DNA from: Squalus acanthias
Lineage: Eukaryota
Direction: 5' to 3'
Assembly: GCA_030390025.1 (NCBI GenBank)
Contig: CM059431.1
Span: 99,636,001 to 99,700,000 of the forward strand
DNA: 64,000 nucleotides
This document shows positions 1-38,545 of the stretch, one piece after another (the stretch's first letter is position 1; each line of letters opens with the position of its first letter). The position numbers and the translations under genes were made by a program. Under the pieces are notes generated by a model. The model was not told the origin of the DNA and made no database searches. It was given only the letters and a program-made list of their open reading frames with translations.

Positions 1-3000
1 ACACCCCGCCTATTACACCCGCCCGTTATACACCCCGCTTATTACACCCGTCCGTTATACACCCCTCCTATTACACCCGCCCGTTATACACCCGCCCGTT
101 ATACCCCCGCCCATTATACACCCGCCCGTTATACACCCGCCCGTTATACACCCGTCGGTTATACACCCCGTCCTTTATACACCCGCCCGTTATACACCCC
201 GCCTATTACACACGCCCGTTATACACACCGCCCATTATACACCCACCCGTTATACACCCCGCCTATTACACCTGCCCGTTATACACACTGCCCATTATAC
301 ACCCGCCCATTATACACCTGCCCGTTATACGCCCCGCCTATTACACCCGCCCATTATACACCCCGCCTATTACACCCGCCCGTTATACACCCCGCCTATT
401 ACACCCGCCTGTTATATACCCCGGCTATTACACCCGCCCGTTATACTCAACGCGCATTATACACCCGCCTGTTATACACCCCGCCTATTACATCTGCCCA
501 TTATACACCCCGTCTGTTACACACCCGCCCGTTATACACCCCGCCCATTACACACCCGACTGTTACACACACGCCCGTTAGACATCCGCCCGTTATACAG
601 CCCGTCTGTTACACCCCAGCCTGTTAGACACCCACCCGTTATACACCCCATCTGTTACACACCAGCCTGTTATGCACCCGCCCGTTATACATCCCGTCTG
701 TTATATACCCACCGTTAGACACCCTGCCCGTTATACACCCGCCCGTTACACACCCCGCCTGTTATACTCCTGCCCGTTACGCAACCGCCCGTTACACACC
801 CGCCCATTACACACCCGTTGTTACACACCCGCCCGTTAGACACCCGCCCGTTACACACCCGGCATTTATACACGACGCCCGTTATACACCCGCCCATTAT
901 ACACCCGCCTGTTATACAACCGCCAGTTATACACGACGCCCGTTATACACCCGCCCATTATACACCCGCTCGTTATACACCCGCCCGTTATACACCCCGA
1001 CGGTTATACATCCACCCGTTATACGCCCCGCCCGTTATACACCCGCCCGTTATACACCCGCCTGTTATACACCCGCCCGTTATACACCCGCCGGTTATAC
1101 ACCCCGTCCTTTATACACCCGCCCGTTATACACCCCGACGGTTATACATCCGCCCGTTATACACCCGCCTGTTACACATCCACCTGTTATACACCCGCCC
1201 GTTACACACTCGCCCGTTATACACCCGCCCGTTACACACCCCACCTGTTATACAACCCGCCCGTTATACCACCTGCCCATTATACACCTGCACATTAAAC
1301 ACCCCGCCTGTTATACAGCCGCCCGTTATACACCCTGCCAATTACACCCGCCCGTTATACACCCCATATTACACCTGCCCGTTACACAGCCCGCCTATTA
1401 TACACCCACCCGTTATATACCCCGCCTATTACACACGCCTGTTATACACCCCGCCTATTACAACTGCCCGTTATACACCCCGCCTATTATACACCCACCC
1501 GTTATACACCCCGCCTATTACACCCATCCGTTATACACACCGCCCATTATACACCCGTCCGTTATACAGCATGCCTATTATACCCGCCCATTATTCACAC
1601 CAGCCATTATACACCCGCCCGTTATACACCCCGCCTATTACACCCGCCCGTTATACACCCCGCCTATTACACCCGCCCGTTATACACCCCGTCTATTACA
1701 CCCGCCCGTTATACACCCCGTCTATTACACCCACCCGTTATACACCCCGCCTATTACACCCGCCCGTTATACACCCTGCCTATTACACCCGCCCGTTATA
1801 CAGACTGCCCATTATACAGCCGCCCGTTATACACCCCGCCTATTACACCCGCCTGTTATACACACCGCCCATTATCCACCTGCCCATTATACACCCCTCC
1901 TATTACACCCACCAGTTATACAACCGCCCGTTATACACCTGCCCGTTATACACCCCGCCTATTACACCCGCCCGTTATACACCCCGCCTATTACACCCGC
2001 CCGTTATACACCCGCCCGTTATACACCCGTCGGTTATACACCCCGTCCTTTATACACCCGCCCGTTATACACCCCGCCTATTACACACGCCCGTTATACA
2101 CACCGCCCATTATACACCCACCCGTTATACACCCCGCCTATTACACCTGCCCGTTATACACACTGCCCATTATACACCCGCCCATTATACACCTGCCCGT
2201 TATACGCCCCGCCTATTACACCCGCCCATTATACACCCCGCCTATTACACCCGCCCGTTATACACCCCGCCTATTACACCCGCCTGTTATATACCCCGGC
2301 TATTACACCCGCCCGTTATACTCAACGCGCATTATACACCCGCCTGTTATACACCCCGCCTATTACATCTGCCCATTATACACCCCGTCTGTTACACACC
2401 CGCCCGTTATACACCCCGCCCATTACACACCCGACTGTTACACACACGCCCGTTAGACATCCCGCCGTTATACAGCCCGTCTGTTACAGACCCCAGCCTG
2501 TTAGACACCCACCCGTTATACACCCCATCTGTTACACACCAGCCTGTTATGCACCCCGCCCGTTATACATCCCGTCTGTATATACCCACCGTTAGACACC
2601 CTGCCCTTATACACCCGCCCGTTACAACACCCCGCCTGTTATACTCCTGCCCGTTACGCAACCGCCCGTTACACACCCGCCCATTACACACCCGTTGTTA
2701 CACACCCGCCCGTTAGACACCCGCCCGTTACACACCGGCATTTATACACGACGCCCGTATACACCCGCCCATTATACACCCCGCCTGTTATACAACCGCC
2801 AGTTTACACGAAGCCCGTTATACACCCGCCCATTATAACACCCGCCCGTTATACACCCGCACCGTTATACACCCCGACCGGTTATACATCCCCCCGTTGT
2901 ACGACCCCCGCCCGTTATACACCCGCCCGTTATACACCCGCCTGTTATACACCCGCCCGTTATACACCGCGGTTATACACCCCGTCCTTTATACACCCGC

Positions 3001-6000
3001 CCGGTATTCACCCCGACGGTTTTATACATCCGCCCGTTATACACCGCGCCTGTTACACATCACCTGTTATACACCGCCGGTTACACACTCGCCCGTTATA
3101 CACCCGCCCGTTACACACCCCACCTGGTTATACAACCCGCCCGTTATACCACCTGCCCATTATACACCTGCACATTAAAACACCCCGCCTGTTATTACAG
3201 CCGCCCGTTATCCACCCTGCAATTACACCCGCCCGTTATACAACCCCTAGTACCCTGCCCTTACACAGCCCGCCTATTATACACCCACCCGTTATATACC
3301 CCGCCTATTACACACGCCTGTTATACACCCCGCCTATTACAACTGCCCGTTATACACCCCGCCTATTATACACCCACCCGTTATACACCCCGCCTATTAC
3401 ACCCATCCGTTATACACACCGCCCATTATACACCCGTCCGTTATACAGCCTGCCTATTATACCCGCCCATTATTCACACCAGCCATTATACACCCGCCCG
3501 TTATACACCCCGCCTATTACACCCGCCCGTTATACACCCCGCCTATTACACCCGCCCGTTATACACCCCGTCTATTACACCCCGCCCGTTATACACCCCG
3601 TCTATTACACCCACCCGTTATACACCCCGCCTATTACACCCGCCCGTTATACACCCTGCCTATTACACCCGCCCGTTATACAGACTGCCCATTATACAGC
3701 CGCCCGTTATACACCCCGCCTATTACACCCGCCTGTTATACACACCGCCCATTATCCACCTGCCCATTATACACCCCTCCTATTACACCCACCAGTTATA
3801 CAACCGCCCGTTATACACCTGCCCGTTATACACCCCGCCTATTACACCCGCCCGTTATACACCCCGCCTATTACACCCGCCCGTTATACACCCGCCCGTT
3901 ATACACCCCGCCTATTACACCCACCCATTATACCCCCCGCCTATTACACCCGCCCGTTATACACCCCGCCTATTACACCCGCCCGTTATACACCCCGCCT
4001 ATTACACCCGTCCTTTATACACCCCGCCGGTTACACACATGCCCGTTATACACACTCCTTATATACACCCACACCCGCCCGTTATACTCCCGCCTGTTAG
4101 ACACCCACCCGTTATACACCCCGGCCGTTATACACCCCGCCTATTACACCCGCCCGTTATACACCCCACCTATTACACCCGCCCGTTAAACACCCGCCTA
4201 TTACACCCGCCCGTTATACACCCGGCTATTACACACGCCCGTTATACACCCCGTCTGTTACACACCCGCCCGTTATACACCCGCCCATTACACACCCCGC
4301 CCATTACACACACCCGACTGTTACACACACGCCCGTTAGACACCCGCCTGTTATACATCCCGTCTGTTATATACCCACTGTTAGACACCCTGCCTGTTAT
4401 ACACCCGCCCGTTACACACCCCGCCCGTTATACACCTACCCGTTACGCAGCCGCCCGTTACACACCCGCCCATTACACACCCGCTGTTACACACCCGCCC
4501 GTGAGACACCCGCCCGTTACATGCCCGGCATTTATACACCAACCTGTTATACTCCCGCCCGTTATAGATGACGCCCGTTATACACCCACCCATTATACAC
4601 CCGCCTGTTATACACCTGCCCATTATACACGACGCCCGTTATACACCCGCCCATTATACACCCGCCCGTTATACACCCGCCCGATATACACCCGCCCATT
4701 ATACACCCGCCCGTTATACACCCGCCCGTTATACACCCGCCAGTTATACACCCCGTCCTTTATACACCCGCCCGTTATACACCCCGACGGTTATAATTCC
4801 GCCCGTTATACACCCGCCTGTTACACATCCACCCGTTATATACCCGCCCGTTACACACCTGCCCGTTATAAACCCCGCCCGTTATACACCCGCCCGTTAT
4901 ACACCCCGCCCGTTATACACCTGCCCGTTACACACCCCACCTGTTATACACCCATGCGTTATACAACCGCCCGTTATACACCCTGCCAATTACACCCGCC
5001 CGTTATACACCCCATATTACACCTGCCCATTACACACCCCGCCTATTATACACCCACCCGTTATACACCCCGCCTATTACACCCGCCCGTTATACACCCG
5101 CCCGTTATACACCCCGCCTATTATACACCCACCCGTTATACACCCCGCCTATTACACCCGCCCGTTATACACACTGGCCATTATACACCCACCCGTTATA
5201 CACCCTGCCTATTACACCCACCCGTTATACACCCTGCCTATTACACCCGCCCGTTATACACCCCGCCTATTACACCCGTCCTTTATACACCCCGCCGGTT
5301 ACACACATGCCCGTTATACACACTCCCTATATACACCCACACCCGCCCGTTATACACCCCGCCCGTTATACACCCCGCCTATTACACCCGCCCGTTATAC
5401 ACCCCACCTATTACACCCGCCCGTTAAACACCCGCCTATTACACCCGCCCGTTATACACCCTGCCTATTACACCCGTCCGTTATACACACCGCCCATTAT
5501 ACACCTGCCCGTTATACACCCGGCTATTACACCCGCCCGTTATACACCCCGTCTGTTACACACCCGCCCGTTATACACCCGCCCATTACACACCCCGCCC
5601 ATTACACACCCGACTGTTACACACACGCCCGTTAGACACCCGCCCGTTATACATCCCGTCTGTTATATACCCACTGTTAGACACCCTGCCTGTTATACAC
5701 CCGCCCGTTACACACCCCTCCGTTATACACCTACCCGTTACGCAGCCGCCCGTTACACACCCGCCCATTACACACCCGCTGTTACACACCCGCCCGTGAG
5801 ACACCCGCCCGTTACATGCCCGGCATTTATACACCAACCTGTTATACTCCCGCCCGTTATAGATGATGCCCGTTATACACCCACCCATTATACACGCGCC
5901 TGTTATACACCCGCCCATTATACACGACGCCCGTTATACACCCGCCCATTATACACCCGCCCGTTATACACCCGCCCGATATACACCCGCCCATTATACA

Positions 6001-9000
6001 CCCGCCCGTTATACACCCGCCAGTTATACACCCCGTCCTTTATACACCCGCCCGTTATACACACCGACGGTTATAATTCCGCCCGTTATACACCCGCCTG
6101 TTACACATCCACCCGTTATATACCCGCCCGTTACACACCTGCCCGTTATACACCCCGCCCATTATACACCCGCCCGTTATACACCCCGCCCGTTATACAC
6201 CCGGCCTATTACACCCGCCCGTTATACACAGCGCCCATTGTACACCCGCCCGTTATAAACCCTGCCTATTACACCCGCCCGTTATACACCCCGCCTATTA
6301 CACCCACCCGTTATACACCCCACCTATTACACCCGTCCTTTATACACCCCGCCGGTTACACACATGCCCGTTATACACACTCCCTATATACACCCACACC
6401 CGCCCGTTATACACCTGTCTGTTAGACACCCACCCGTTATACACCCCGCCCGTTATACACCCCGCCTATTACACCCGCCCGTTATACACCCCACCTATTA
6501 CACCCGCCCGTTAAACACCCGCCTATTACACCCGCCCGTTATACACCCCACCTATTACACCCGCCCGTTATACACCCGGCTATTACACCCGCCCATTATA
6601 CACCCCGTCTGTTACACACCCGCCCGTTATACACCCGCCCATTACACACCCCGCCCATTACACACCCGACTGTTACACACACGCCCGTTAGACACCCGCC
6701 CGTTATACATCCCGTCTGTTATATACCCACTGTTAGACACCCTGCCTGTTATACACCCGCCCGTTACACACCCCGCCCATTATACACCTACCCGTTACGC
6801 AGCCGCCCGTTACACACCCGCCCATTACACACCCACTGTTACACACCCGCCCGTTAGACACCCCGCCCGTTACATGCCCGGCATTTATACACCCGCCTGT
6901 TATACACCCGCCCGTTATAGATGACCGCCCGTTATACACCCACCCATTATACACCCGCCTGTTATACACCCGCCCGTTATACACGACGCCCGTTATACAC
7001 CCCGCCCATTATACATCCCGCCCGTTATACACCCGCCCGATATACACCCGCCCTTATACACCCGCCCGTTATACACCCGCCCGTTATACACCCCGCCAGT
7101 TATACACCCCGTCCTTTATACACCCGCCCGTTATACACCCCGCCCGGTTATACATCCCGCCCGTTATAAACCCCGCCCTGTTACACCTCCCCCGTTATAC
7201 ACCCGCCCGTTACACACCCGCCCGTTATACACCCCGCCCGTTATACACCCGCCCGTTATACACCCCGCCCGTTATACACACCGCCCATTATACACCCACC
7301 CGTTATACACCCCACCTATTACACCCGCCCGTTATACACCCGCCTATTACACCCATCCGTTATACACACCGCCCATTATACACCTGCCCGTTATACACCC
7401 GGCTATTACACCCGCCCATTATACACCCCACATGTTACACACACGCCCGTTAGACACCCGCCCGTTATACACCCTGTCTGTTACACACCAGCCTGTACAC
7501 ACCCCGCCCGCTAAACACCTGCCCGTTACACACCCGCCCGTTACACACCCGCCCATTACACACCCGCTGTTACTCACCCGCCCGTTAGACACCCGCCCGT
7601 TACACACCAACCTGTTATACATCCCCGCCCGTTATAGATGACGCCCGTTATACACCCGCCCATTATACACCCGCCTGTTATACACCCGCCCATTATACAC
7701 GACGCCCGTTATACACCCGCCCATTAAACACCCGCCCGTTATACACCCGCCCGATATACACCCGCCCATTATACACCCGCCTGTTATACAGCCGCCCGTT
7801 ATACACCCGCCCGTTATACAACCCACCCGTTATACACCCTGCCCATTATACACCTGCACATTAAACACCCCGCCTGTTATACAGCCGCCCGTTATACATC
7901 CTGCCAATTACACCCGCCCGTTATACACCCCCTATTACACCTGTCCGTTACACACCCTGCCTATTATACACCCGTCCGTTATACACCCCGCCTATTACAC
8001 CCGTCCGTTATACACCCCGCCTATTACACCCGCCCGTTATACACCCCACCTATTACACCCGCCCGTTAAACACCCGCCTATTACACCCGCCCGTTATACA
8101 CCCCACCTATTACACCCGCCCGTTATACACCCGGCTATTACACCCGCCCGTTATACACCCCGTCTGTTACACACCCGCCCGTTATACACCCGCCCATTAC
8201 ACACCCCGCCCATTACACACCCGACTGTTACACACACGCCCGTTAGACACCCGCCCGTTATACATCCCGTCTGTTATATACCCACTGTTAGACACCCTGC
8301 CTGTTATACACCCGCCCGTTACACACCCCGCCCATTATACACCTACCCGTTACGCAGCCGCCCGTTACACACCCGCCCATTACACACCCACTGTTACACA
8401 CCCGCCCGTTAGACACCCGCCCGTTACATGCCCGGCATTTATACACCCGCCTGTTATACACCCGCCCGTTATAGATGACGCCCGTTATACACCCACCCAT
8501 TATACACCCGCCTGTTATACACCCGCCCATTATACACGACGCCCGTTATACACCCGCCCATTATACATCCGCCCGTTATACACCCGCCCGATATACACCC
8601 GCCCATTATACACCCGCCCGTTATACACCCGCCCGTTATACACCCGCCAGTTATACACCCCGTCCTTTATACACCCGCCCGTTATACACCCCGACGGTTA
8701 TACATCCGCCCGTTATAAACCCGCCTGTTACACATCCACCCGTTATATACCCGCCCGTTACACACCCGCCCGTTATACACCCCGCCCGTTATACACCCGC
8801 CCGTTATACACCCCGCCCGTTATACACACCGCCCATTATACACCCACCCGTTATACACCCCACCTATTACACCCGCCCGTTATACACCCGCCTATTACAC
8901 CCATCCGTTATACACACCGCCCATTATACACCTGCCCGTTATACACCCGGCTATTACAGCCGCCCATTATACACCCCACATGTTACACACACGCCCGTTA

Positions 9001-12000
9001 GACACCCGCCCGTTATACACCCTGTCTGTTACACACCAGCCTGTTACACACCCCGCCCGCTAAACACCTGCCCGTTACACACCCGCCCGTTACACACCCG
9101 CCCATTACACACCCGCTGTTACTCACCCGCCCGTTAGACACCCGCCCGTTACACACCAACCTGTTATACATCCCCGCCCGTTATAGATGACGCCCGTTAT
9201 ACACCCGCCCATTATACACCCGCCTGTTATACACCCGCCCATTATACACGACGCCCGTTATACACCCGCCCATTAAACACCCGCCCGTTATACACCCGCC
9301 CGATATACACCCGCCCATTATACACCCGCCTGTTATACAGCCGCCCGTTATACACCCGCCCGTTATACAACCCACCCGTTATACACCCTGCCCATTATAC
9401 ACCTGCACATTAAACACCCCGCCTGTTATACAGCCGCCCGTTATACATCCTGCCAATTACACCCGCCCGTTATACACCCCCTATTACACCTGTCCGTTAC
9501 ACACCCTGCCTATTATACACCCGTCCGTTATACACCCCGCCTATTACACCCGCCCGTTATACACCCCGGCTATTATACACCCACCCGTTATACACCCCGC
9601 CTATTACACCCGCCCGTTGTACACCCGCCCGTTATACACCTGCCCATTATACACCCGTCGGTTATACACCCCGTCCTTTATACACCCGCCCGTTATACAC
9701 CCGCCCATTATACACCCGTCGGTTATACACCCCGTCCTTTATACACCCGCCCGTTATACACCCCGACGGTTATACATCCACCCATTATACACCCACCCGT
9801 TACACACCCGCCCGTTATACACCGGCCCATTATACACCCCGCCCATTATACACCTACCCGTTACACACCCCACCCGTTATACACCCACGCGTTATACACC
9901 CCGCCCGTTATACACCCTGCCCATTATACACATGCCTGTTACACACCCTGTCAGTTATACACCCGCCCGTTATACACCCGCCCGTTACAAACCTGCCCGT
10001 TACACACCCCGCCCGTTACAAACCTGCCCGTTACACACCCCGCCCGTTACACACACGCCCGTTATACACCCGCCCGTTACACACCCCGCCCGTTATACAC
10101 CCACCCGTTATACACCCGCCCGTTATACACCCTGCCCGTTATACTCCCCGCCCGTTTTACACACTCCCATTATACACCCACCCGTTATATACCCGCCCGT
10201 TATACACCCGCCCGTTACACACCCGCCTGTTACACACCCGCCGGTTACACACCCGCCCGTTATACACCCCGCCCGTTACACACCCGCCCGTTATACACCC
10301 GCCCGTATACAGCCGCCCATTATACACCCCGCCCGTTACACACCCGCCCGTTACACAACCCGCCCGTTATACACCCGCCCGTTATACAGCCGCCCATTAT
10401 ACACCCCGCCCATTACACACCCGCCCGTTATACAACCTGCCCGTTACACACCCGCCCGTTATACACCCGCCCGTTACACACCCGCTCGTTATACACACGC
10501 CCGTTACACACCCCGCCCGTTATACACCCGCCCGTTATACACCCGCCCGTTATACATCCGCCCGTTATACACCCACCTGTTATACACCCGCCCGTTATAC
10601 ACCCCGCCCATTATATACCCGCCCGTTATACACCCGCCCATTATACACCCACCCATTATACACCCCGCCCGTTATACACCCGCCCGTTATACACCCGCCC
10701 GTTATACACCCGCCCGTTATACACCAGCCCGTTATACACCCCGCCCGTTATACACCCCGCCCGTTATACACCCGCCCGTTATACACCCGCCCGTTATACA
10801 GCCGCCCATTATACACCCGCCCATTATACACCAGCCCGTTATACACCCCGCCCGTTATACACCCCGCCCGTTATACACCCGCCCATTATACACCCCGCCC
10901 ATTATACACCCGCCCATTATACACCAGCCCGTTATACACACACCCGTTATACACGCCGCCCATTGTACACCCGCCCGTTATACACCCCACCCGTTATACA
11001 CCCGCCCGTTATACACCCGCCCGTTATACACCCGCCTGTTATACACCCGCCTGTTATACACCCGCCCGTTATACACCAGACCGTTATACACCCGCCCGTT
11101 ATACACCCACCCGTTATACACCCACCCGTTATACACCCGCCCATTATACACCAGCCCGTTATACACCCGCCCGTTATACACCCACCCGTTATACACCCGC
11201 CCATTATACACCAGACCGTTATACACCCTGCCCGTTATACACCCCGCCCGTTATACACCCCGCCCGTTATACACCCGCCCGTTATACACCCGCCCGTTAT
11301 ACACCCGCCCATTATACACCCCGCCCGTTATACACCCGCCCGTTATACACCCGCCCATTATACACCCGCCCATTATACACCCCGCCCGTTATACACCCGC
11401 CCATTATACACCCACCCGTTATACACCCGCCCGTTATACACCCGCCCATTATACACCCGCCCATTATACACCCCGCCCGTTATACACCAGACCATTATGC
11501 ACCAGACCGTTATACACCCGCCCATTATACACCCGCCCGTTATACACCCTCCCGTTATACACCCGCCCATTATACACCCGCCCATTATACACCAGACCGT
11601 TATACACCCTCCCGTTATACACCCGCCCATTATACACCCGCCCATTATACACCCCGCCCATTATACAACCCGCCCGTTATACACCAGACCGTTATACACC
11701 TACCCGTTACACACCACACCCGTTATACACCCACGCGTTATACACCCCGCCCGTTATACACCCTGCCCATTATATACCTGCCCGTTACACACCCCGCCCG
11801 TTATACACATGCCTGTTACACACCCCGCCCGTTACACACACGCCCGTTATACACCCGCCCGTTACACACCCCGCCCGTTATACACCCACCCGTTATACAC
11901 CCGCCCGTTATACACCCTGCCCGTTATACTCCCCGCCCGTTTTACACACTCCCATTATACACCCACCCGTTATATACCCGCCCGTTATACACCCGCCCGT

Positions 12001-13797
12001 TACACACCCGCCTGTTACACACCCGCCGGTTACACACCCGCCCGTTATACACCCCGCCCGTTACACACCCGCCCGTTATACACCCGCCCGTTATACAGCC
12101 GCCCATTATACACCCCGCCCGTTACACACCCGCCCGTTATACAACCCGCCCGTTATACACCCGCCCGTTATACAGCCGCCCATTATACACCCCGCCCGTT
12201 ACACACCCGCCCGTTATACAACCTGCCCGTTACACACCCGCCCGTTATACACCCGCCCGTTACACACCCGCTCGTTATACACACGCCCGTTACACACCCC
12301 GCCCGTTATACACCCGCCCGTTATACACCCGCCCGTTATACATCCACCCGTTATACACCCACCCGTTATACACCGCCGTTATACACCCGCCCGTTATACA
12401 ACCCGCCCGTTATACACCCGCCCATTATACACCCACCCATTATACACCCCGCCCGTTATACACCCGCCCGTTATACACCCGCCGTTATACACCAGCCCGT
12501 TATACACCCCGCCCGTTATACACCCCGCCCGTTATACACCCGCCCGTTATACACCCGCCCGTTATACACCCGCCCATTATACACCCCGCCCATTATACAC
12601 CCGCCCATTATACACCAGCCCGTTATACACCACACCCGTTATACACCCCGCCATTGTACACCCGCCGTTATACACCCCACCCGTTATACACCCGCCCGTT
12701 ATACACCCGCCCGTTATACACCCGCCCGTTATACACCCGCCCGTTATACACCCGCCCGTTATACACCCGCCCGTTATACACCAGACCGTTATACACCCGC
12801 CCGTTATACACCCGCCCGTTATACACCCAGCCCGTTATACACCCGCCCAGTTATACACCAGCCCGTTATACACCCGCCCGTTATACACCCGCCCATTATA
12901 CACCAGACCGTTATACACCCCGCCCGTTATACACCCGCCCGTTATACACCCGCCCGTTATACACCCGCCCGTTATACACCCGCCCGTTATACACCCGCCC
13001 GTTATACACCCCCCATTATACACCCCGCCCGATATACACCCGCCCGTTATACACCCGCCCGTTATACACCCGCCCATTATACACCCCGCCAGTTATACAC
13101 CCGCCCATTATACACCCCCCCGTTATACACCCGCCCGTTATACACCCGCCCATTATACACCCGCCCATTATACACCCCGCCCGTTATACACCCAGCCCAT
13201 TATACACCAGCCCGTTATACACCCCGCCCGTTATACACCCCTCCCGTTATACACCCGCCCATTATACACCCGCCCATTATACACCAGACCGTTATACACC
13301 CTCCCGTTATACACCCGCCCATTATACACCCGCCCATTATACACCCCGCCCATTATACACCCCGCCCGTTATACACCAGACCGTTATACACCCGCCCATT
13401 ATACACCCCGCCCGTTATACACCCACCCATTATACACCCGCCCATTATACACCCGCCCATTATACACCCGCCCATTATACACCCACCCGTTATACACCCG
13501 CCCGTTATACACCCCGCCCGTTATACACCCGCCCATTATACACCAGCCCGTTATACACCCACCCGTTATACACCCGCCCGTTATACACCCCGCCCGTTAT
13601 ACACCCGCCCGTTATACACCCGCCCATTATACACCCCGCCCGTTATACACCAGACCATTATACACCCCACCCGTTATACACCCGCCCATTATACACCCCG
13701 CCCGTTATACACCAGACCATTATACACCCCGCCCGTTATACACCAGACCATTATACACCCCGCCCGTTATACACCAGACCATTATACACACACCCGT
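1..13797. repeat. C-rich tandem satellite, monomer about ACACCC(C)GCCCGTTAT (15-16 bp, with 13-14 bp CCTATTAC variants); runs off the left edge
   Basis: Continuous array of roughly 900 monomers with CpG-decay variants (CCCATT, CCTGTT, CCCACCC). All long Pro/His/Thr/Tyr-rich ORFs here are repeat artefacts. Confidence 0.98.
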
Positions 13798-13859
13798 TAA
13801 TTTTAAGTGACTTAATTGGAAATGAATATGAGTCAGTTTTTGAATGGGCTTCCAATCTG

Positions 13860-14560
13860 CTACGGCCTTTATTGAGTTCCTGCCAAAGTCGAAGTTCTTC
13901 CTCATGTTGTTGGTGATTATGCTGTATCTTGCATTTCTTGGTGTTAAATTTAATTTTCTCTTTTTCTTGGCAGTTACATAACCAATCTAAATCCTTCTGT
14001 AAATCCTTCACTGCATAATCTGTCTTTTCTGTTCTCCCAATGGAATGGTTAACCAATTGGATGGGCTTACATTTGCTTTCTGTATCCAAGTCATTTGTAT
14101 AATTTAGAACTAAGGGCAGTGGGAGCACTGACCCCTGCCTGCCTCGAATCAGCATTTCTCCCTGAACTGACATCATTCTCAGGAGTATTCTTCGCTTCCT
14201 AATTTTCTAGCCGGTTTCTTATCCAGTCTTGCATTCCGTGGGTTCTAATGAAAGGATTCGACACAAAACATTAACTAACTTGCAGGTGCTGATGGTTCTG
14301 CTCTTCATTTCCAGCAATTTCTATTTTTATTCTGAAGTTCTACCCTAGATTCCTGCGGCTAGTCGTTTAATTTGAAGTCTTTCGTGTGGAACTTTTTCAA
14401 AAGCTATCTGAAAGCCGAAGTAAACAATAACATAAGGAATTCCACTGTCTATTTTATCTTAATCATCCTCAAAAGAGGTTTTGTCAGCCTGGACCTTCGT
14501 CCTATAAATCCAAGTTGGCCACTTTCTATTGTTATTGCCAAATAGGTATTCCTCCAACCT
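13860..14560 (-). mobile_element. Old, highly decayed CR1-type LINE RT fragment
   Basis: Minus-strand remnants VYFGFQIAFEKVPHERL, QGSVL, NDLD and LQKDLDWL...KFNTKKCKI. Confidence 0.75.
14242..14335 (+). mobile_element. Degenerate Penelope-type terminal-repeat fragment inside the old CR1
   Basis: gttctaatgaaaggattcgacacaaaacattaact...tttccagcaatttctatttttattc is a decayed version of the repeat at 14935-15040. Confidence 0.5.
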
Positions 14561-14570
14561 ACCCCTAACC

Positions 14571-24998: not shown

Positions 24999-26405
24999 GC
25001 CAGAGGTGCCAGAGGACTGGAGGACTGCTAATGTGGTACCCTTGTTTAAAAAGGGAGAAAGGGATAGACCGAGTAATTACAGGCCAGTCAGCCTAACCTT
25101 GCTGGTGGGCAAATTATTGGAAAAAATTCTGAGGGACATTATTAATCGTCATTTGGAAAGGCACAGATTAATCAAGGACAGTCAGCATGGATTTGTTATG
25201 GAAAGTCGTATCTGACTAACTTGATTGAATTTTTTGAGGAGGTAACAAGGAGGGCCAATGAGATTAGTATGTTTGATGTAGTCTACATGGATTTTAGCAA
25301 GGCTTTTGACAAGGTCCCACATGGCAGACTAGTCAGAAAAGTAAAAGCCCATGGGATCCAAGGCAAAGTGGCAAGTTGGATCCAGAATTAGCTCAGAGGC
25401 AGGAAACAAAGGGTAATGGTCGAAGGGTGTTTTTGTGACTGGAAGGCTGTTTCCAGTGGGGTTCCGCAGGGCTCAGTACTGGGTCCCTTGCTTTTTGTGG
25501 TATATATCGATGATTTAGACTTCAATGTAGGGGTATGATTAAGAAGTTTGCAGATGATACAAAAATTGTCCGTGTCTTTGATAGTGAGGAAGAAAGCTGT
25601 AGACTGCAGGAAGATATCAATGGACTGGTCAGGTGGGCAGAACAGTGCCAAATGGAATTCAATCCAGAGAAGTGTGAGGTAATATATTTGGGGAGGGCTA
25701 ACAAGGCAAGGGAATACACAATAAATGGTAGGACACTGAGACATACAGAGGATCAGAGGGACCTTGGAGTGCATGTCCACAGATCTCTGAAGGTAGCAGG
25801 ACAGGTAGATAAGGTGGTTAAGAAGGCATATGGGACTCTTGCCTTTATTAGCCAAGGCATAGAATATAAGAGCAGGGAGGTTATGCTAGAACTTATTAAA
25901 AAACTAGTTAGGCCACAGCTAGAGCACTGCGTACAGTTCTGGTCACCACGGGGGCGATTTTCTGACGCTGGAGGAGGCGGGTTTGGAGGCAGGAAAGGCG
26001 GGAAAATCAGAAACAATGAGGGCGGGTTCGGAACCCGCCTCCAACCCGCCTCCAATCCTCCACCGCGGGATTTTGCCAGTGCCGGATTTGGAGGTCGGGA
26101 AACAGTTCCGCCTCCAGCTGGCCATAGTGTTAGTTAACATGATTAAATGCTCGTTAAGGACCTCTCTAAGCCTATTTTGAGAGGCCCTGGCGGGTTGACT
26201 CATGGGTGGCCTCCTCACAGCTGCAGGTCCAACAATATATCGTTTATTTCATCAAGGATTACTTGCAGGTGCCAGACCTTGGGTTTAATAGGTCTCTGAG
26301 CACTTTTAGAAGGCCTTCCGAAGTCGGAGGTGCTGCAGCTTGAATCTATCAACTGTGGGACCTCCTTGGAAGACCCTCTCCCCGCTTGCAATGAGCGCTT
26401 CCCCA

Positions 26406-27851
26406 ATGGAGGCATCTGCAAGCAGCATGGGAACCATTCGTTTTCTTTCTCCATGGACCTCAGATGAGGATGAGGACCATCCACGGCAGCAGCAGAACCA
26501 GGCAGCTCAGGAGCAACACCAGCAGGAGCCCCAACCTCCTGCTTAGGAGCAACAGCAGCAGGAGCCCCAACCTCCTGCTTAGGAGCAACAGCAGCAGGAG
26601 CCCCAACCTCCTGCTTAGGAGCAACAGCAGCAGGAGCCCCAACCTCCTGCTTAGGAGCAACAGCAGCAGGAGCCCCAACCTCCTGCTTAGGAGCAACACC
26701 AGCAGGAGCCCCAACCTCCTGCTCAGCCACCTGATGCTGCACAGGGCAGAAGGCACCAGCGCATCGAGGCACCTCGCCGCAGAAGATACCCCCGACAGAG
26801 GGTTTACAGACAGAGGATGAGCTATCTCAACATGAGTGAGCAGCAGTGCCAAAGGAGGCTGAGACTTTCGCGAGAGGTTGTCCGAGAGATCTGCGGCCTG
26901 CTGCAGCAAGACCTGGTGCCCAGAGGAACAGGGTGGACACCCCTTACCAGTGGCTGTCAAAGTCACCACCGCACTCAACTTCTTTGCCTCAGGCTCCTTC
27001 CAGGGATCATCAGCGGCATCTCCCAGTCGGCCGCCCACAGTTGCATCACACATGTTACTGATGCCCTTTTTGCTAAGGCCCACAATTACATCCAGTTCAC
27101 AAGGGATCAAGCAAGTATAACCGCTGTTTGGTTGGCTTTGCAAATATGGCAGGCATGCCAATGGTGCAGGGCATCATAGACTGCACACATGTGGCCCTTA
27201 GGGCACCCCATCACAACCCAGCTATCTTTGTCAACCGAAAGGGCTTCCACTCCCTCAACGTTCAGCTGGTGTGTAACCACAAGAAGGAGTTCTTGCATGT
27301 TTGCGCCAAGTTCTGTGGAAGTTGCCATGACTCTTTCATCCTGCTGCACTCTAGTGTTCCTCCGCTTTTCAATCCACCAAACCAACTTAACGGATGGCTC
27401 CTTGATGAAAAAGCTACCCCCTGAAGAAGTTGCTAATGACGCCGATCAGGAGGCCAGCTAACGAGGCTGAAGAGCGCTACAACGCCAGCCACACTTCGAC
27501 CAGGTCCATCATAGAGCAAACCATTGGGTTGTTGAAGATGCGCTTCCGTTGCCTTGACCAATCAGGTGGAGCCCTGCAGTATACACCATACAGGGTCTCC
27601 AGAATGGTTGTGGTCTGCTGTACACTGCACAACATCACACAGCGTCGTGGCTTGCCGCTTCCTGATGAGCAGATGAGGATCAGGAGGAGGAGGAGGAGGA
27701 GGAGGATCTGGAGGAGGAGGAGGAGCAGGAGCAGGAGGAGAAGCAGGAGGAGGTCAGAGCGCCGGTGTATCGACCAGCGGCAGCGGCAGCACGCGAGCAC
27801 ATGGCTGCCCGGGATGCAAGGGATGAACTTATCATGGCCAGATTTGCATAG
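26406..27851 (+). pseudogene. Harbinger (HARBI1-like) DDE transposase pseudogene
   Basis: [80 protein letters not shown] and CCTLHN, with several frameshifts and stops. Confidence 0.92.
26511..26726 (+). repeat. 36-bp minisatellite, 6 copies, in the transposase N-terminus
   Basis: GAGCAACA(C/G)CAGCAGGAGCCCCAACCTCCTGCT(T/C)AG x6. Confidence 0.95.
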
Positions 27852-28089
27852 GTTGCCCAAGTTGGCACATGTCCTTGGCTCCATCCTAGGACATCATTGA
27901 CAATGGACATGACTCTCTGGCCTCCTTTCACTCAGGCCACCAACCTGACAATGCAAGTGTGGCGGAGGCCGCAATGTGGAGCTGCCTAAGGCGAAAGAAC
28001 AGATGGCATAACGCCAACATTCTGGCTTCAAATCATTTTAATGCTTTCCAACAGGGATGGTATTTCATCAATACACAGAAACAGTCTCC

Positions 28090-28278
28090 CAATCTGTACA
28101 CAGATCTGGAGGTTATATCCCTTGCCAGCTGTACCCTCACAGCCTTGGTTTCTTTGGCAGGCCTCTTCCTCCCAGATGAGTGGAAGAGCACCTCCCTGCT
28201 AGCTGTCACCCCCTCAAACAACATTTGCAGCACCTCATCTGAGAGCCTCGGGGAGGCTCTTGCCTTGGAATTGGACAT
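28090..28278 (-). pseudogene. Harbinger Myb/SANT-like gene, N-terminal remnant
   Basis: MSNSKARASPRLSDEVLQMLFEGVTASREVLFHSSGRKRP..QLARDITSRSV. Confidence 0.72.
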
Positions 28279-29090
28279 AGGTTTCTCAAAATATGTTGCA
28301 GGTGGTGCAGGAGAAGCAGAAATACTGTGGAAGGAGCCAAGGGAGCAAGAAGCCATAAAATCAGGCAGGAAAAGTGCTGTCAACAGAGGCGAGTTTCAGT
28401 CCCAAAACATTAATTGAGCAAGGGCATCCCACACCTCTGAAATCAAGTGGAAAATCATGGGAAAAATCGCAAAATTTTGAAAACTATCAGTGGAGGCGAG
28501 TTTCAAACCCACCCAAACTGAAACCCGCCTCCATCTCACCTCCAGTGAGAAAATCGCCCCCACATTACAGGAAAGATGCGATTGCACTAGAGAGGGTATA
28601 AAGGAGATTTACGAGGATGTTGCCGGGACTGGAGAATTTTAGATATAGGGAAAGATTGGATAGGCTGGGGTTGTTTTCTTTGGAGCAGAGGAGGCTGAGG
28701 GGAGACCTGATTGAGGTGTATAATATTATGAGGGGCCTAGATAGAATGGATAGGAAGCACCTATTTCCCTTAGCAAAGAGGTCAATAACTGGGGGCATAG
28801 ATTTAAAGTAATTGGTAGAAGGATTAGTGGGGAGTTGAGGAGAATTTCTTTCACCCAGAGGGTGGTGGGGGTCCAAAACTCACTGTCTGAAAGGGTGGTA
28901 GAGGCAGAAACCCTCATCGCATTTAAAAAGTACTTGGATGTGCACTTGAAGTGCCGTCACCCACAGGACTACGGACCAAGAGCTGGAAAGTGGGATTAGG
29001 CTGGATGGTGCTCTTTCTCGGCCGACACAGACACGATGGGCCGAATAACCTCCTTCTGTGCCATAAACTTCTATGATTCTTTGATTCTAT

Positions 29091-29530: not shown

Positions 29531-29713
29531 CTTATAAATGATATCCATGCACAGTTTACTAGCTTTGTTGCAAATATGGAGGGACAGTGTGCACTTCAAA
29601 GCCACCTCAGTGTTACGCCCTCTGCCAGGCACCGAGCGGAGGGGATAATGAGTAAAGAACCAGTGTCATTCTGGGTTAAAGCACCAACAAAGAGTTCATG
29701 GGGACATAAAGCA

Positions 29714-30564: not shown

Positions 30565-31385
30565 ATTGGGCTCCTTTGCACCTCCCGTTAGCGCCTCCGA
30601 GGGGCGCTAACGGGGCGCAAAAGGGTTTACGACCGGGCGCGGCGATATCAACGCCTCCCGCTAAATTCGACAGTAGTTTTGCGATGGCGGTAAGACATTG
30701 CGCCGAGATCTCCTGCGCCCGGAGATCGTGATGTCATTGCCAGATCTATTCCAGCCACCACATCAAGCTTGCGGCTGGCTGCTGGGAGACAAGGGTTATC
30801 CGCTCTCCACCTGGCTCATGACTCCCCTCCGCAACCCCAACACTCCTGACCAGCACTCATATAATGAGAGCCAGGTTGCCACCAGGAACATCATTTAGCA
30901 AACCATTGGAGTGCTCAAGCAACGGTTCCGCTGCCTTGACCGCTCAGGAGGAGCCCTCCAGTACTCGGCTGAGCGGGTGTCACTTCGTCATCTGCTGCAT
31001 GCTGCACAACTTGGCCATCATGAGGGCCCAGCCATTGCCACCAGGCACAGCCGCACCTCCTCAGGAAGAGGAGCAGGATGAGGAGGAGGAGGATGAGGAG
31101 GAGGAGGAGGAGCAAGAGGAACAGGAGGATGAACAGCAGTGACGGAGGAGGCAGCCACTGAATCGGCATTCTGCAAGGTTGGTCCGTGACTGTCTCATCA
31201 GACTTCGTTTCCAGTGACTTCGAGTCCTCGTTCCGGTTGCTGAGCACGTCGCCGTTATTCCATCACTTTGTGATTCCATACCACACCCTAGAACTGAGAC
31301 ATGAGACACAGCATCAAATCTGCAACATTCCAGTGATAAATTTATCAACATTCAGTAAACACATATATACAACAACAATATTAAC
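30565..31385 (+). mobile_element. Harbinger fragment: terminal module fused to the transposase C-terminal part (30741-31217)
   Basis: [54 protein letters not shown], an acidic tail and LIRLRFQ*. Confidence 0.88.
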
Positions 31386-31388
31386 TAA

Positions 31389-32500: not shown

Positions 32501-32615
32501 TACTGGGAGTGTCAGGCTAGAGTTTTGAGCTCAAGTCTCTGGAGTGGGACTTGAACCCACAACTGTTCTAGACTCAGCAGGTGAGCATGCTGCCCACTGA
32601 GCCACAGCTGACACA
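32501..32615 (-). mobile_element. tRNA-derived head of a Deu-type SINE
   Basis: Minus strand has A box TGGCTCAGTGG and B box GGTTCAAGTCC, then cactccagagacttgagc as in the 33866 copy. Confidence 0.75.
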
Positions 32616-32689
32616 ACTGATGCCAATCGATTTTGGAGGGAAGCTCGCTTAAAAACTTCTGGCTGCAAGTCATTCTACTCGCTGAAAGT

Positions 32690-32862
32690 AAAGGAAAGAC
32701 TCCATTTCTATAGCGCCTTTCACCACCTCAGGACGTCCCAAAGCGCTTTACAGCCAGTGAAGTACTTTTGAAGTGTAGTCACTGTCGTAATGTAGGAAAC
32801 ACGGCAGCCAATTTGCGCACAGCAAGCTCCCACAAACAGCAACATTTACAGTGACCAGATTA
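32690..32862 (-). mobile_element. Deu-type SINE, 3' part
   Basis: Matches the other copies (caggacgtcccaaagcgctttacagcc...gcacagcaagctcccacaaacagc). Confidence 0.8.
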
Positions 32863-33021
32863 ATACCGCACCCACCAAAAACTGACCCAGATCTATCATC
32901 GGCCCCTGATTGTCGGTTTCAGGCTGGAGGTTGGCTCTGCGGGTCGGAAGCCACCGGCATTTGACGGTAGTTTTGCTTCTTTAATAAAGGTCGATGTTTG
33001 CGTGTGCACTGATACTTCTTG

Positions 33022-33226
33022 AAAAAAATTCATTCTCGGGGTGTGGGCGAAGCTGGCAAGGCCGGCATTTATTGCCCGTCCCCAGTTGCCCTAAAAAGTG
33101 GTTTTGATACAACTGAGTGGATCACTCGACCACTTCAGAGGGGGGTTAAGAGTCAACCACATTGGTGTGGGATTGGAGTCACATGTAGGCCCAGACCGGG
33201 TAAGGACGGCAGGTTTCCTTCCCTAA
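33022..33226 (-). mobile_element. Fragment of the tRNA-headed SINE/LINE family at 57-62 kb
   Basis: Reverse complement of ggaaacctgccgtccttacc...gggcaataaatgccggcc. Confidence 0.75.
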
Positions 33227-33865
33227 TAACTGATATAAAAAAAATTCATTTGTTTATGGTAGCATTAAAATGGAAAAAAAAGGATTGCATTTTAAAACGC
33301 TTGTGTTATGATCTGGTTCTCGTGTTCCTCTGTTTACCAGTAATCCTAAATGCCTTAAGTTGGACTGTTTCCTGTTCAGTAGATTTTCTAAAATAATTGA
33401 TATGCTTGCCTGTCATTGATTTAGTGCAATTTCTTTGTTTTAAATGAAAACATAATGTACAAAGTGTTTTTCAAAGAGGATTTTGGACTTTGCATTTGCA
33501 ATCGTGAATGGATTTGATTGTTATAGAACTCCACTGTTACTCTTGTATATCAAATTATCCAGACAGAGTTAAAAAGATACCTCAAGGCAAAAGAAAATGA
33601 GTTCTTGCCTTTTCACATTGTGACTTTCATGCTTCGACTGAAGAAAATAACTTTGCCCTCAAATAGAAAATAGCTTCTTTCGTCTTTTAATGAATAAAAC
33701 ATTGTTCATTAAAGCACATTTTAATCATGCTTAAGATGTGGGCTGCACTTTGGTACATTCGTTCTGAAGAGTTGCATCTAGCCCCGGGTTCGATGCTCAT
33801 AAATCAATGTCCAGGTACTTTACTTGAACTATAAAATTATGAATATTAGAATCAGTTTGCCATAA

Positions 33866-34252
33866 GAAAGAAAGAACTTGCATTTATATAGCGCCTTTCA
33901 CGGACGTCCCAAAGCGCTTTACAGCCAATGAAATACTTCTGAAGTGTCGTCACTGTTGTAATGTAGGAAACGTGGCAGACAATTTGTGCACAGCAAGCTC
34001 CCACAAACAGCAATGTGATAATGACCAGATAGTGGTGTTGGGTTGAGGGATAAATATTGGCCAGGACAACGGGGAAAACTTCCCTGCTCTTCTTCAAAAT
34101 AGTGTCCTTGGGATCTTTTACGCCCACCTGAGGGGGCAGACGGGGCCTCAGTTTAACGTCTCATCCGAAAGACGGCACCTCCAACAGTGCAGCCCTCCCT
34201 CTGTACCGCACTGGGAGTGTCAGCCTAGATTATGGGCTCAAGTCTCTGGAGT
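33866..34252 (-). mobile_element. Deu-domain SINE (AmnSINE1/SacSINE1-like)
   Basis: Minus strand gtgccgtctttcggatgagacgttaaactgaggccccgtctg...aaagatccc...gtcctggccaatatttatccctcaacc is recognisable as the Deu core. L2-like 3' tail. Confidence 0.8.
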
Positions 34253-34494
34253 GCGATGAAGATGTAATCTTCAGATATATAGTTTCATATCGATGCTTGA
34301 GACAAGTCCTGACAGTTCATGTTTATTTACTGTCCAAAGTTAATCCTTGTCTTTGACACTTTCATGTTATATAACTAGTGTGCTTTTTTTATATAGCTTG
34401 GCTGTTCCCAAACAGTAGGGTAAAATGCACTTGTAAATGTTGAGGTAAAGGGAATGGGTAACACAATTCCAATTTTAATTTATCCTTGGTTAGA

Positions 34495-35076
34495 ATTTCT
34501 AGGCTTGACTATTCCAACGCACTCCTGGCTGGCCTCCCACCTTGCACCCTACATAAACTTGAGGTCACCCAAAACTCGGCTGCCCGTGTCCTAACTCGCA
34601 CCCAGTCCCGTTCACCCATCACCCCTGTGCTCACTGACCTACATTGGCTCCCGGTTAAGCAGCCTCTCGATTTCAAAATTCTCATCCTTGTTTTCAAATC
34701 CCTCCATGGCCTCGCCTCTCCCTATCTCTGTAATCTCCTCCAGCCCCACAACCCCCCGTGATATCTGCGCTCCTCTAATTCTGCCCTCTTGAGCATCCCT
34801 GATTATAATCGCTCAACTTTTGGTGGCCGTGCCTTCTGTTGCCTGGGCCATAAGCTCTGGAATTCCCTCCCTAAACCTCTCCGCCTCGCTACCTCTCTTT
34901 CCTCCTTTAAGACGCTCCTTAAAACCTACCTCTTTGAGCAAGCTTTTGGTCACCTGCCCTAATTTCTCCTTATGTGGCTCAGTGTCAAATTTTTTGTCTT
35001 TTAATACTCCTGTGCAGCGCCTTGGGATGTTTTACTACGTTAAAGGCGCTATATAAATACAAGTTGTTGTTGTTGT
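34495..35076 (+). mobile_element. L2-type LINE 3' fragment
   Basis: [20 protein letters not shown] with a (TTG)n tail. Confidence 0.9.
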
Positions 35077-35577
35077 AGAATTTGCTGAACGGATCATCCT
35101 GCGTCACAGAAAGGTTCAACGAAGAACACTCACGACCTAGAATGCTTTCTGCTTTCTTCATCCAGCTTTGTTCATTTATTACAGCGTGGCACCAGAATAT
35201 TATTTTAAAAAGTCAAATTCAACTGTAGCCGCAAAATGCTTGATGTTTTGTGACAAGTGTTAATTTAGTTCACACTGTTCCATGTACTCTCGCATCCTGT
35301 GTGTAGCATTTTAATTTTTGCAAAGCCCGGAAAGGGTCTGGAGAATTAATCGCACGACACTGTGTGGGTGGGATGACAGTAAACGCTTCAGTCAAAGACT
35401 TACTGAATATAATTTGCTAGATGTTGGGTTGTAAGAAAAATAAAAGAGTGGTAATTTTATATAAAAATGAATTTGGAAAGTCCAACATTATAAACCGATA
35501 GCGCACAGCAATTGAACAGCAGTCAGTACATCCTTATGGAGAAGCGACTGTGCACCAAACCCAACTTCTAAAGTCAT

Positions 35578-37789
35578 AGGCCCAGAAATTGGGCTTCGTA
35601 CTGCCACGAGTTACCGCCGCAATCTTGGAAAAAAATGGCGTCCGCCGCTCTAACGCCCATCTCTGGCGCGGGACTCGGCAGCTGCCATTTTGGTGAGGGC
35701 CTCAGTGGCCCTGGACATGCAAATATGGAGAGCGTGACGTCACGCTCTGCGAACTTCGACCCTAGCGCTGAGTTTAGCGCTGGGTCCTAAGCTCGCTCTG
35801 AAAAGCGAGCGTGCAGCAGGCTGACAGAGACGCTGTCAGCACTTCTTAAAGGGGCACACACATCTTTCAGGTAAATTTGCATTTAAGCTTTTGGACTGGA
35901 TTTTTTTAGATTTTATTGAAGTGGTGGATGCTTGCAAGGCCTCAGATGGTAAAGGAAGGCCTTTGAGAAGACAGAAAATGCTGGAAGTACTCAGCAGGTC
36001 AGGCAGCATCTGTGGAGAGAGAAACAGAGTTCATGTCTCAGGTCGAGATGCTGCCTGACCTGCTGAGTATTTCCAGCATTTTATGCTTTTATTTCAGAGT
36101 TACAGCATCTGCTCGCAGAGGGATGAGGAAGACTCAGAAGAGGAGGATGCAGAAGGAAGGATGCAACCCAGACAGCCCCTTTCTGGCTGGGATATCCAGG
36201 ATGGAATCATCCACCTGTGGTACCAGTGACCACAACCCAAATTCCACTTTCAACATTTGTCCCACACTTTACCTTCCCTCTGTTACTGACCATCACAGTG
36301 TCCTCTTGGCCACAATGCTGAAATAAAAGCCACCACAAACCAAATTTTCCAATCCAACTTTATACATCTATCCATCCAATATGACATCAAGAAATCAACT
36401 CATCACCCTTATGTATTCTCTTAGTAATTGTCTTGTGTGTGCCTTTGCCGATCCTACTGCTGTCACGCAGTGTGACCCCAGTGGCTGCAGCATGGCTGGT
36501 GGAAGGCTGCTGACTTTCAGTGGGGGGTCACTGCAAATCGCCTTGCTGGTCAACCTTGAGGAGCTGGTGGCTGGGAGTGTGAAATCGAGTGACGGTGTTT
36601 CTTCTTCTTCACTCTCCTCTCCCTCTTCTTGGTCAATCACTGGCTGGGCAGGCTGCATTTCTTGGGTGTGTGAAATGAGGAAGGCACAAGGGTGGAGTTG
36701 GGGAGGGCGGGAAAGCAAGAGGTGCATGTGAGAAGGAGGATAACATATGAGGATACCAGCATCTTGTATCCTTTCAGCCCTGCCGCTGGCCAAGGGCTCA
36801 GCCATGCCCCTGCCAAGAATGGCCAGCACCATCTCCTCCAAGGGGGTGAGGTGAAGCTAGGACTGGGAGGTGTGCCTCATGATTGGTACAGATTGTTGGT
36901 GGGTGAGTGAATGGGGGGGGGGGGGGGGGGGAGAGTCGTGCAGGGAGCAGTATGTGAGGCTAGTGGTGCAGTTGGTAGGAGGCTGTTTTTGAAGATGCAG
37001 TCACTGACCTTGACCACTGGCCTGAGGTCATGAAGCTTCTTTGGGCACTGGAGCCAGGTGGTGGGGGCAACACTGCTGGCAGTGACATCCTTGGTGTTCT
37101 TTCCGGAGCCTGGCCCCTGTGGGTAGAGGACCTCTCTTGCAGTGTTGACACCCTGCACAAAGCTGGAGTGCTGCTTGCGAGAGCCTGGCTGCCCCTTCCC
37201 TGGCTTGCTGAGCCATTTGTGTTAGTGCTGAAGCAATTTTCCCGTTTTTTTAGGTGCGGAAGGTAATTAAACTTTAAGAGCTGAAGACTCCCATTTGGGA
37301 ATTCCTTTTAATGTTAATTTTTTTCAGAAGGCAGTTGATCTCTAAGGGCTAAAAACTGCCTATTTTTAAATGACGTTTATTTTTTTCATTTCAGGAGGCA
37401 GTTCCCCTTTCAGGGACCTTACTGCTTTCTGAAATGATGGTCTTGCTTTAAGAGCAGGTCTCTCCAGGCCGAGATTTAAGGCTGCAATGAGATGGGAGTG
37501 GCTGGCCAGCAAGATGGCCCCTCTCCTTTAAGAACTGGCCGGCGCCAGTCTGTCTGGTTTCCATGGTTACGGACATCGCCTGAGCTTCGGTAGCATTCTG
37601 AGGTAGTGCCTCGCTCCCCGACGTTAACACCTTAAGAGAGGTGTGTAGCGCCTGATTTAACACTCAAATCACCTCCAGGGACGATAGAGGCGAATTTTGC
37701 AGTCGGAGGTGATAATTAGCGTCGGGCGCTAAACTTTGCGCCCAGCCGATATTAGCGCCCCGAAATGGGCGATACCCAATTTTTCCCTC
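35578..37789 (+). mobile_element. Non-autonomous Harbinger derivative, copy 2
   Basis: Ends ggcccagaaattggg / cccaatttttccctc. Transposase tail EEDSEEEDAEGRMQPRQPLS..IIHLWYQ* (+), Myb remnant (-), and a Penelope hairpin at 35975-36082. Confidence 0.8.
36420..37216 (-). pseudogene. Harbinger Myb/SANT-like gene remnant with apparent introns
   Basis: MAQQAREGAARLS..GVNTAREVLYPQG..TWLQCPKKLHDLRPVVK|gtcagt; LEEMVLAILG..ERIQDAG|gtatcc; QEMQPAQP..EEEETPSLDFTLPATSS. Confidence 0.72.
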
Positions 37790-38359
37790 AATGTCTTTTG
37801 GTACTTTTAGACATTGTTAGGTAACTTTTAGGCCATTTCTCCAACAATGCCAGTTCTTGAAATGGCTCGGGTTATTTATCAATGGGAAAGCTCTGAGCTC
37901 AAAGACCAGATAGGCTGAGGTAGACCTCGCACAGAGTGAAGTGTTAGTGAATGCACATTGGGTGTTAAATGTTCACCTGATTGGAGCAATTGCATTGAAC
38001 CATGGACTTCCTTGCCATTGTCATAGATTAATATTGCAGTCCTTTGTGATCGGGCTGCTTGCTTGCTCAATTCTACAAAGGTCGTCTCAGACCACCTTGG
38101 CACAGATCTAAGATTCAAACCCAGCCTAGGACAGTGAGTTTGATTGACTGTTGTCTCTGCGGCCTGTGAGAAGGATGCTGGATTGGCTGTAATCCTCCTT
38201 GAGCGATAGTTTGGTGGCTGGGGTCTGCAGTGAGAGGTATAGGAGCAGGAGTCGGCCATTCGGCCCCTCGAGCCTGCTCCGCCATTCAATAAGATCATGG
38301 CTGATCTTCGACCTCAACTCCACTTTCCCGCCTGATCCCCGTATCTCTCGATTCCCCTA

Positions 38360-38545
38360 GGACTAGAAATTCGTCTCGGGCAGTGGCACAAGACGGGCGC
38401 TATCGGATCAGCCGCCCGTTATACTCAGCGTCAGATGTTCAATTCCACTCCAGTCAATGGAACTAAATACCAGGCGTTGCGTATAACGGGCGGCCGAACT
38501 GCTAGCGCCCGTTTTGCACCACCGCCCGAGACGAATTTCTAGGCC
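38360..38545. mobile_element. 186-bp palindromic MITE (Harbinger/Tourist-like)
   Basis: TIR gg(a/c)ctagaaattcgtctcgggc, pairing for about 65 bp. TSD CTA/TTA (one mismatch). Confidence 0.88.

Follow-up and report, generated by a model that had tools for sequence, protein, structure and literature searches.

What is the source of the 15-bp satellite that fills the first 13.8 kb of a 64,000-nucleotide stretch of the Squalus acanthias genome (assembly GCA_030390025.1, contig CM059431.1, positions 99,636,001 to 99,700,000; "the window")? A first-pass annotation of this DNA had proposed that the array is an amplified motif of a MITE (miniature inverted-repeat transposable element), a full-length copy of which lies at 38360-38545. 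That proposal is borne out by the statistics of a 13-base match between satellite and MITE and by the remains of a MITE at the right end of the array. We consider it well supported by the sequence comparisons that the array amplifies a motif from the inner arm of this family's MITEs, and we take a MITE origin, by whatever route, to be very probable. The more specific reading, that the satellite grew in place from an old MITE copy, we would put at a probability of about 0.85.

The satellite core occurs in both arms of the MITE, where the first-pass annotation had placed it: GCCGCCCGTTATAC occupies 38411-38424, its exact reverse complement 38481-38494, and CAGCCGCCCGTTATAC recurs verbatim in the array, seven times, beginning at 1316. 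With A at position 38425, the segment 38412-38426 becomes the satellite unit exactly, in rotated form, and that form is present 210 times in the array. Outside the array, only three places share an exact run of at least 10 bases with the cyclic unit: each arm of the MITE (13 bases) and a site at 21270 (10 bases). Simulating the 50 kb of non-array sequence 400 times never produced an exact 13-mer of the cyclic unit, and the match to the MITE is therefore beyond chance.

The right junction provides independent evidence. It had been described as only weakly resembling the MITE centre, and array ends had been named as the place to look for MITE remnants; such a remnant is present at 13802-13898, and the resemblance extends over 97 bases and into the terminal repeat. 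With the array left out, 62 of 96 columns are identical in its minus-strand alignment with MITE positions 84-181, and a plus-strand alignment with positions 99-181 has 53 of 81 columns identical. Scores in 2,482 control windows average 20.1 (standard deviation, 3.4) and peak at 38, the second-best place being near 33000 (score, 38); the remnant scores 54, which none of 3,000 shuffles reaches (maximum, 36). In the reverse control, the only ones of 1,610 window queries to exceed 38 were those overlapping the MITE. A two-arm profile (nhmmer) recovers the remnant with an E value of 2e-4, or 6e-8 when the last array units are included, and matched no other place in the window outside the array. The order is collinear (array, centre, right arm, terminal repeat), and the polarity of the array is that of the left inner arm; about 19 to 20 bases between motif and MITE centre are missing or overwritten at the junction. 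The remnant can be detected only by transition-tolerant alignment or by a profile, and blastn (word size, 7) of 13790-14300 against the window gave no match. Looking for the exact terminal repeat at the array's left end would therefore probably fail as well.

Could these similarities reflect nothing more than chance likeness of GC-rich motifs? That explanation does hold for three other sites, which the first-pass annotation had assigned to the satellite motif. The sequences are indeed there (TAACGGGCGGC at 21270; CCCGTTA at 30584 and 38586, with its reverse at 30608), but they are not the satellite motif, as they are flanked by TTAGCRCC of another family. Outside the array, 11 of 11 TTAGCRCC matches lie in the terminal modules of elements that end in G runs, and the site at 21270 matches the unit over 10 bases only, a result obtained in 29% of 150 simulations. 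We thus rejected 21270, 30585, and 38587 as instances of the satellite motif. For the array itself, the absence of the 13-mer from all 400 simulations, together with a separate flank match that neither the control windows nor the shuffles equal, leaves chance with a very small probability.

To place the window copy among its relatives, contigs from 4 of the 17 listed runs (X1, X5, X15, and X16; organisms A, H, and I) were aligned on the MITE. The small-share runs X6-X14 were left out, and the resulting tables comprise the best 40 of 243 letter rows, 15 of 84 joints, and 24 of 794 loose ends. In each run, 2,228 to 2,718 contigs match the MITE, most at less than 90% identity, and the 195 to 260 loose ends behind 38545 agree at only 0.38 to 0.39. 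The flanks are thus unrelated, and the MITE belongs to a dispersed high-copy family; contig depth on the MITE is not equivalent to copy number. The window copy (186 bp) folds as one hairpin (-66.5 kcal/mol; z score, -12.3; 0 of 200 shuffles), and no open reading frame (ORF) of at least 120 amino acids is listed across it, as befits a short, noncoding element with terminal inverted repeats. The family letters contain CCGCCCG three times per arm, with TAACGG in only one of the three copies. Three exact CCGCCCG copies are retained in the window MITE, so that a short motif is repeated near both ends. A shorter sister form, in which 38424 is joined to 38481, is represented by one contig per run in all four runs (in X5, 56 bases are replaced by 22); these contigs perhaps derive from one shared locus.

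The direction of change can be read from a CpG site. At 38425 the family majority is G (54 to 78%), and the next allele is A (17 to 42%), the CpG-decay allele and the one found in the satellite unit. CpG decays to CpA. The CpG is kept by the MITE majority and gone from the satellite; from this we infer that the MITE carries the ancestral state and the satellite a derived one, and that the sequence passed from MITE to satellite. The depth-weighted frequency of A at 38425 is 41 to 42% in organism A versus 17 to 21% in organisms H and I, with contig counts alike, which hints at satellite contigs in organism A. The reverse direction, in which one unit of a pre-existing satellite was taken up by the MITE in each of its arms, has been proposed for miDNA4 in Xenopus (PMC12628747), and a satellite-like sister form is common to the three organisms surveyed. 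Besides the lost CpG, however, the threefold recurrence of the core in each arm of a perfect palindrome and the location of the array in the expected place of the left inner arm speak against such capture, which we regard as highly improbable.

The neighbouring position 38410 bears on a 16-base "CAG" match to the array that had also been reported. The A at 38410 is CpG decay in this copy, the family majority being G (63 to 87% of depth over the four runs; 81% in X1), and the match does not stand as a family feature. We also rejected the "CAG" variant as an ancestral relic: it is present in only 7 of about 890 array units, and G at that site occurs in 15 of 445 15-mers, below several other transversions. 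The features on which these arguments draw, and two other elements of the window, are listed in Table 1.

Table 1. Coordinates of the satellite, MITE, and neighbouring element features in the window
Feature	Position	Strand	Remarks
Tandem array	1..13800	+	Consensus TACACCCGCCCGTTA; kilobase-scale duplications inside; left end beyond the window
Single unit continuing into the next 8 letters of the MITE family	6215..6235	+	May be left over from an initial duplication of 16 bp
Remnant of the putative parent MITE: decayed centre, right arm, and most of the terminal repeat	13802..13898	+	MITE positions ~84-181 of 186
Decayed two-ORF Harbinger-type element, different family	25950..28561	transposase pieces +, Myb/SANT-like remnant -	DDE_Tnp_4 E values, 7e-14 and 3e-14; end motif AACCCGCCTCC
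Full-length palindromic MITE, younger copy of high-copy family	38360..38545	.	In the tail of a repeat resembling a short interspersed nuclear element (SINE); flanks CTA / TTA
Probable source of the 15-bp unit	38412..38426	+	14/15 identical in the window copy; 15/15 when 38425 is A
Mirror copy of the motif, right arm	38481..38494	-	CpG adjoining the motif kept in the right arm
Other-family element, G-run terminal repeats, CAA direct repeat	38557..39444	.	11 bases from the MITE; not the satellite's source

Several features of the array itself record its history. Tandem Repeats Finder reports 912 copies of a 15-bp unit at 14-13799; the array crosses the left edge of the window, so that 13.8 kb is a lower bound on its length. 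Cut at TTA, it falls into 892 pieces, of which 451 are 15, 276 are 16, and 100 are 13 bases long. Blocks within it are duplicated at offsets near 1.55, 1.79, and 1.88 kb. Transitions at CpG sites reach 14.2%, versus 1.5% at other sites (445 15-mers of the array). A high CpG transition rate is a mark of germline methylation, and the strong decay therefore points to germline methylation of the motif site. Units differ from the consensus by 2.1 to 2.6 edits in the first 10 kb and by 1.0 to 1.2 in the last 3.8 kb; those beside the remnant are the most uniform, and that part was therefore amplified last. One unit (6215-6235) continues into the following letters of the MITE family, a single case that two substitutions, and possibly chance, could also yield. 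The stretch 2400-2950 has many single-base insertions and deletions relative to its duplicate 1.88 kb away (in the third kilobase, 10 of 63 units are of odd length), which could be long-read consensus error.

Growth in place would have proceeded as follows. An old copy of the 186-bp palindromic, Harbinger-type MITE would have inserted at the locus, and a 15- to 16-bp piece of its left inner arm would then have been duplicated, probably by slippage in a hairpin-prone element at the 4-base repeat CGCC. The family letters have CGCC at 38413 and again 16 bases on, at 38429, and this pair is a plausible slippage point in a hairpin-forming MITE. Further slippage and unequal exchange would have extended the array to at least 13.8 kb, presumably with no function served, and the adjacent centre and right arm, still single copy, would have decayed in the meantime. 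Where the X1 majority and the window copy differ at nine listed positions, the remnant has the majority letter at five, that of the window copy at two, and neither at two (scored by eye).

Several observations weigh against growth in place. The unit matches the family motif at 14 to 15 of 15 bases, whereas the adjoining flank is only about 65% identical to the window copy; the binomial chance of such preservation is 0.01 to 0.17 at 35 to 20% divergence. The MITE centre is absent from every array unit. Among the listed portion of the letter rows, joints, and loose ends, no MITE arm runs into a 15-bp array. In the remnant, the final 5 bases of the terminal repeat (13899-13903) are unrecognisable. 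Finally, the composite of array plus element is seen on the right side only; the left end of the array, where a left arm and a matching target duplication would be expected, lies beyond the window. The better preservation of the unit fits consensus lag in a large array, and it fits birth from a younger copy or selection as well.

Birth from a younger copy is part of an alternative in which the satellite is MITE derived but arose at a younger copy, or at the short sister form, and was joined to the old remnant by ectopic recombination or conversion via the shared motif. The preservation of the unit and the loss of bases at the junction would both follow, and the sister form, present in all four runs, has inner arms that in the letters listed for X5 already resemble 1.4 satellite units; the array holds its two extensions 9 and 41 times. 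Against this, the remnant has the centre of the long form, begins at the last unit of the array, and shares its polarity exactly. The units nearest the junction are also the most uniform, and turnover can explain their youth. We therefore consider such joining unlikely, and growth in place remains the explanation we prefer.

A different question is whether the array was kept because proteins bind it. The first-pass annotation suggested a landing pad or decoy, and this idea is compatible with a MITE origin. On this view the unit would be bound by the Myb-like protein of the MITE family, or by an MSANTD-type factor that has been domesticated. By analogy the motif may well be the family's site for a Myb-like protein: it is repeated three times per arm, the window's other families each have a repeated end motif of their own (these seem to contain CGCC in every family), and a 9-bp subterminal motif of Harbinger3_DR is bound by its Myb-like protein (PMC9710019). 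The newest part of the array is also the closest to the family motif. The unit is nearer to that motif than the flank is, which consensus lag or birth from a younger copy explains without selection. Several points argue against retention for binding, however. The Myb-like ORFs of the window are broken; exact CCGCCCG is kept in roughly one-third of units (321 of about 890); the CpG decay implies germline methylation of the site; and no Harbinger insertion interrupts the 13.8 kb of array in the window, the family's target consensus being unlike the unit. We think a retained landing pad or decoy improbable.

The suggested figure of about 900 sites is likewise too high, since only 304 to 466 units keep a core motif (in 1-13800, CCGCCCG occurs 321 times, CCGCCCGTTA 304 times, and CCGTTA 466 times). 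The argument from the c-Myb consensus is weak, as CCGCCCG is the repeated core and TAACGG is in one of the three copies per arm; YAACKG itself occurs 71 times in the window outside the array. The c-Myb site is read by paired R2R3 repeats. The second-ORF remnant of the element at 25950-28561 looks like a single Myb_DNA-bind_5/MADF type, a lead only, as the Atlas clusters nearest to 28036-28278 are Myb_DNA-bind_5, MADF, and Myb_DNA-bind_4 (cosine, 0.83 to 0.85). Pfam searches of the Myb-like remnants gave no match in two sets of four references each.

The same motif edge may have been used more than once. In run X15 a joint leads back 40 bases, from 38494 to 38455, at a depth of 255, with related go-back rows in X15 and X16; X1 and X5 give 0 for this joint. 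Depth peaks at 38457-38484, at 41,000 to 64,000 in X15 and 24,000 to 37,000 in X16, compared with about 10,000 and 5,000, respectively, at the left terminal part. This suggests that organisms H and I have a second tandem, of 40 bp, which derives from the same MITE and ends at the same motif edge. One might combine these observations into a broader model, in which the motif is both a putative Myb-like binding site and a reused satellite birthplace, the 15-bp array and the 40-bp tandem sharing its edge, and in which the host refreshes motif-perfect CpG units as a sink for Harbinger Myb-like or MSANTD proteins. We judge this model to be a long shot.

The MITE itself is probably a nonautonomous Harbinger element. 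Its flanks in the window are identical at two of three bases, and the family flank consensus leaves a 3-base centre: the loose ends give AAAGAC, 3 bases, and GT(C/G)TTT (four runs, low agreement), a palindromic target preference like that of zebrafish Harbinger3_DR, whose target consensus is given as AAACACCWGGTCTTT (PMC3016246). Harbinger3_DR is described as working with two proteins, of which the Myb-like one binds the ends of the element (PMC3016246, PMC2836001, PMC9710019, PMC9392472). In what these sources report, binding is demonstrated for the 9-bp motif of Harbinger3_DR only. The terminal-repeat pattern GG[GC]C.[AT]GAAATT is common to the MITE and to ends at 35579 and 52114. The transposase-bearing element at 25950-28561 has a different terminal repeat, and the segment 37006-37221 appears Myb-like by eye only, with no Pfam match and no usable Atlas match.

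MITE-derived and Harbinger-derived satellites are already established, and the present array is a well-preserved further example. VaccSat7 of Vaccinium comes from the near-terminal part of the nonautonomous Harbinger elements HARB-N1_VCo as well as HARB-N7_VMa (PMC7290377). It resembles our case in that a near-terminal Harbinger part was multiplied, with the units still inside the element, but it is a plant satellite, with 3 to 5 units inside the elements, whereas here a vertebrate-type genome contains about 900 units of 15 bp with half of a decayed parent attached. In Xenopus, Xstir arose from the Xmix MITE, and miDNA4 is a comparable case (PMC12628747, PMC9659126, and the table of PMC6947457). 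There, too, internal MITE sequence became an array, composites of MITE plus array exist, and terminal repeats decay as the array grows. The MITE families are different, however; miDNA4 is of the Tc1/mariner type, with repeat capture proposed, whereas in our case a short motif from a fully palindromic arm makes up the unit, and a CpG allows the direction to be read. The nearest decoy precedent is the amplification of E2F sites by MITEs in Brassicaceae (PMC5950925, PMC7329337), in which a protein-binding motif was likewise multiplied to high copy. In that system the protein is a host factor bound in vivo, and a review doubts the regulatory relevance, whereas here both factor and binding are hypothetical.

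In listings of the open literature (mostly without subscription papers), we found no paper on a MITE-derived satellite in sharks, judging by titles and the openings of abstracts, and none on satellites made of transposase-binding repeats. Metagenome scans with the terminal repeat and with a two-unit satellite pattern returned 0 matches each, which is uninformative for an animal genome. The locus is a clean case of a long satellite whose parent, direction, and unit boundaries are readable from sequence. Should a second satellite have started from this motif edge in related species, the family would offer a natural test of why some element positions yield satellites. If binding were true, it would be a test of transposon binding sites amplified into sinks; otherwise, this is ordinary repeat evolution.

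The remainder of the window is rich in other mobile elements. Within 38239-39690, two different cut-and-paste elements, the MITE and its G-run-ended neighbour, have inserted 11 bases from each other within the tail of a single SINE-like repeat. The terminal module of this neighbour is common to ends near 21300, 30562-30736, and 17770, and modules rich in TTAGCRCC hairpins are common to 17060-17775, about 21100-21304, 30562-30741, 38557-39444, and 35579-37790. The segments 15250-17035 and 35579-37790 are 75 to 83% alike and contain broken frames that look Myb-like. The two-ORF element at 25950-28561 lies inside a piece of a CR1-like long interspersed nuclear element (LINE); its end motif is doubled in tandem (26032 and 26043), and the front part of its transposase includes six copies of a 36-bp repeat (26505-26723). 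Elements at 52114-52878 and 55649-56686 are related, with inverted ends, internal hairpins, and a terminal repeat near that of the MITE; the latter includes a SINE-like piece. Other tandem repeats lie at 40911-41631, 50818-51291, 58116-58476, and 62263-63997 (39 bp by 18.5 copies, 95%; 19 bp by 24.9 copies, 95%; and two CA-rich simple repeats). A LINE remnant at 59202-62019 retains an open reverse-transcriptase frame of 369 codons (RVT_1; E value, 1.5e-23) and is interrupted by an inverted piece, 60075-60317 mirroring 61944-62186.

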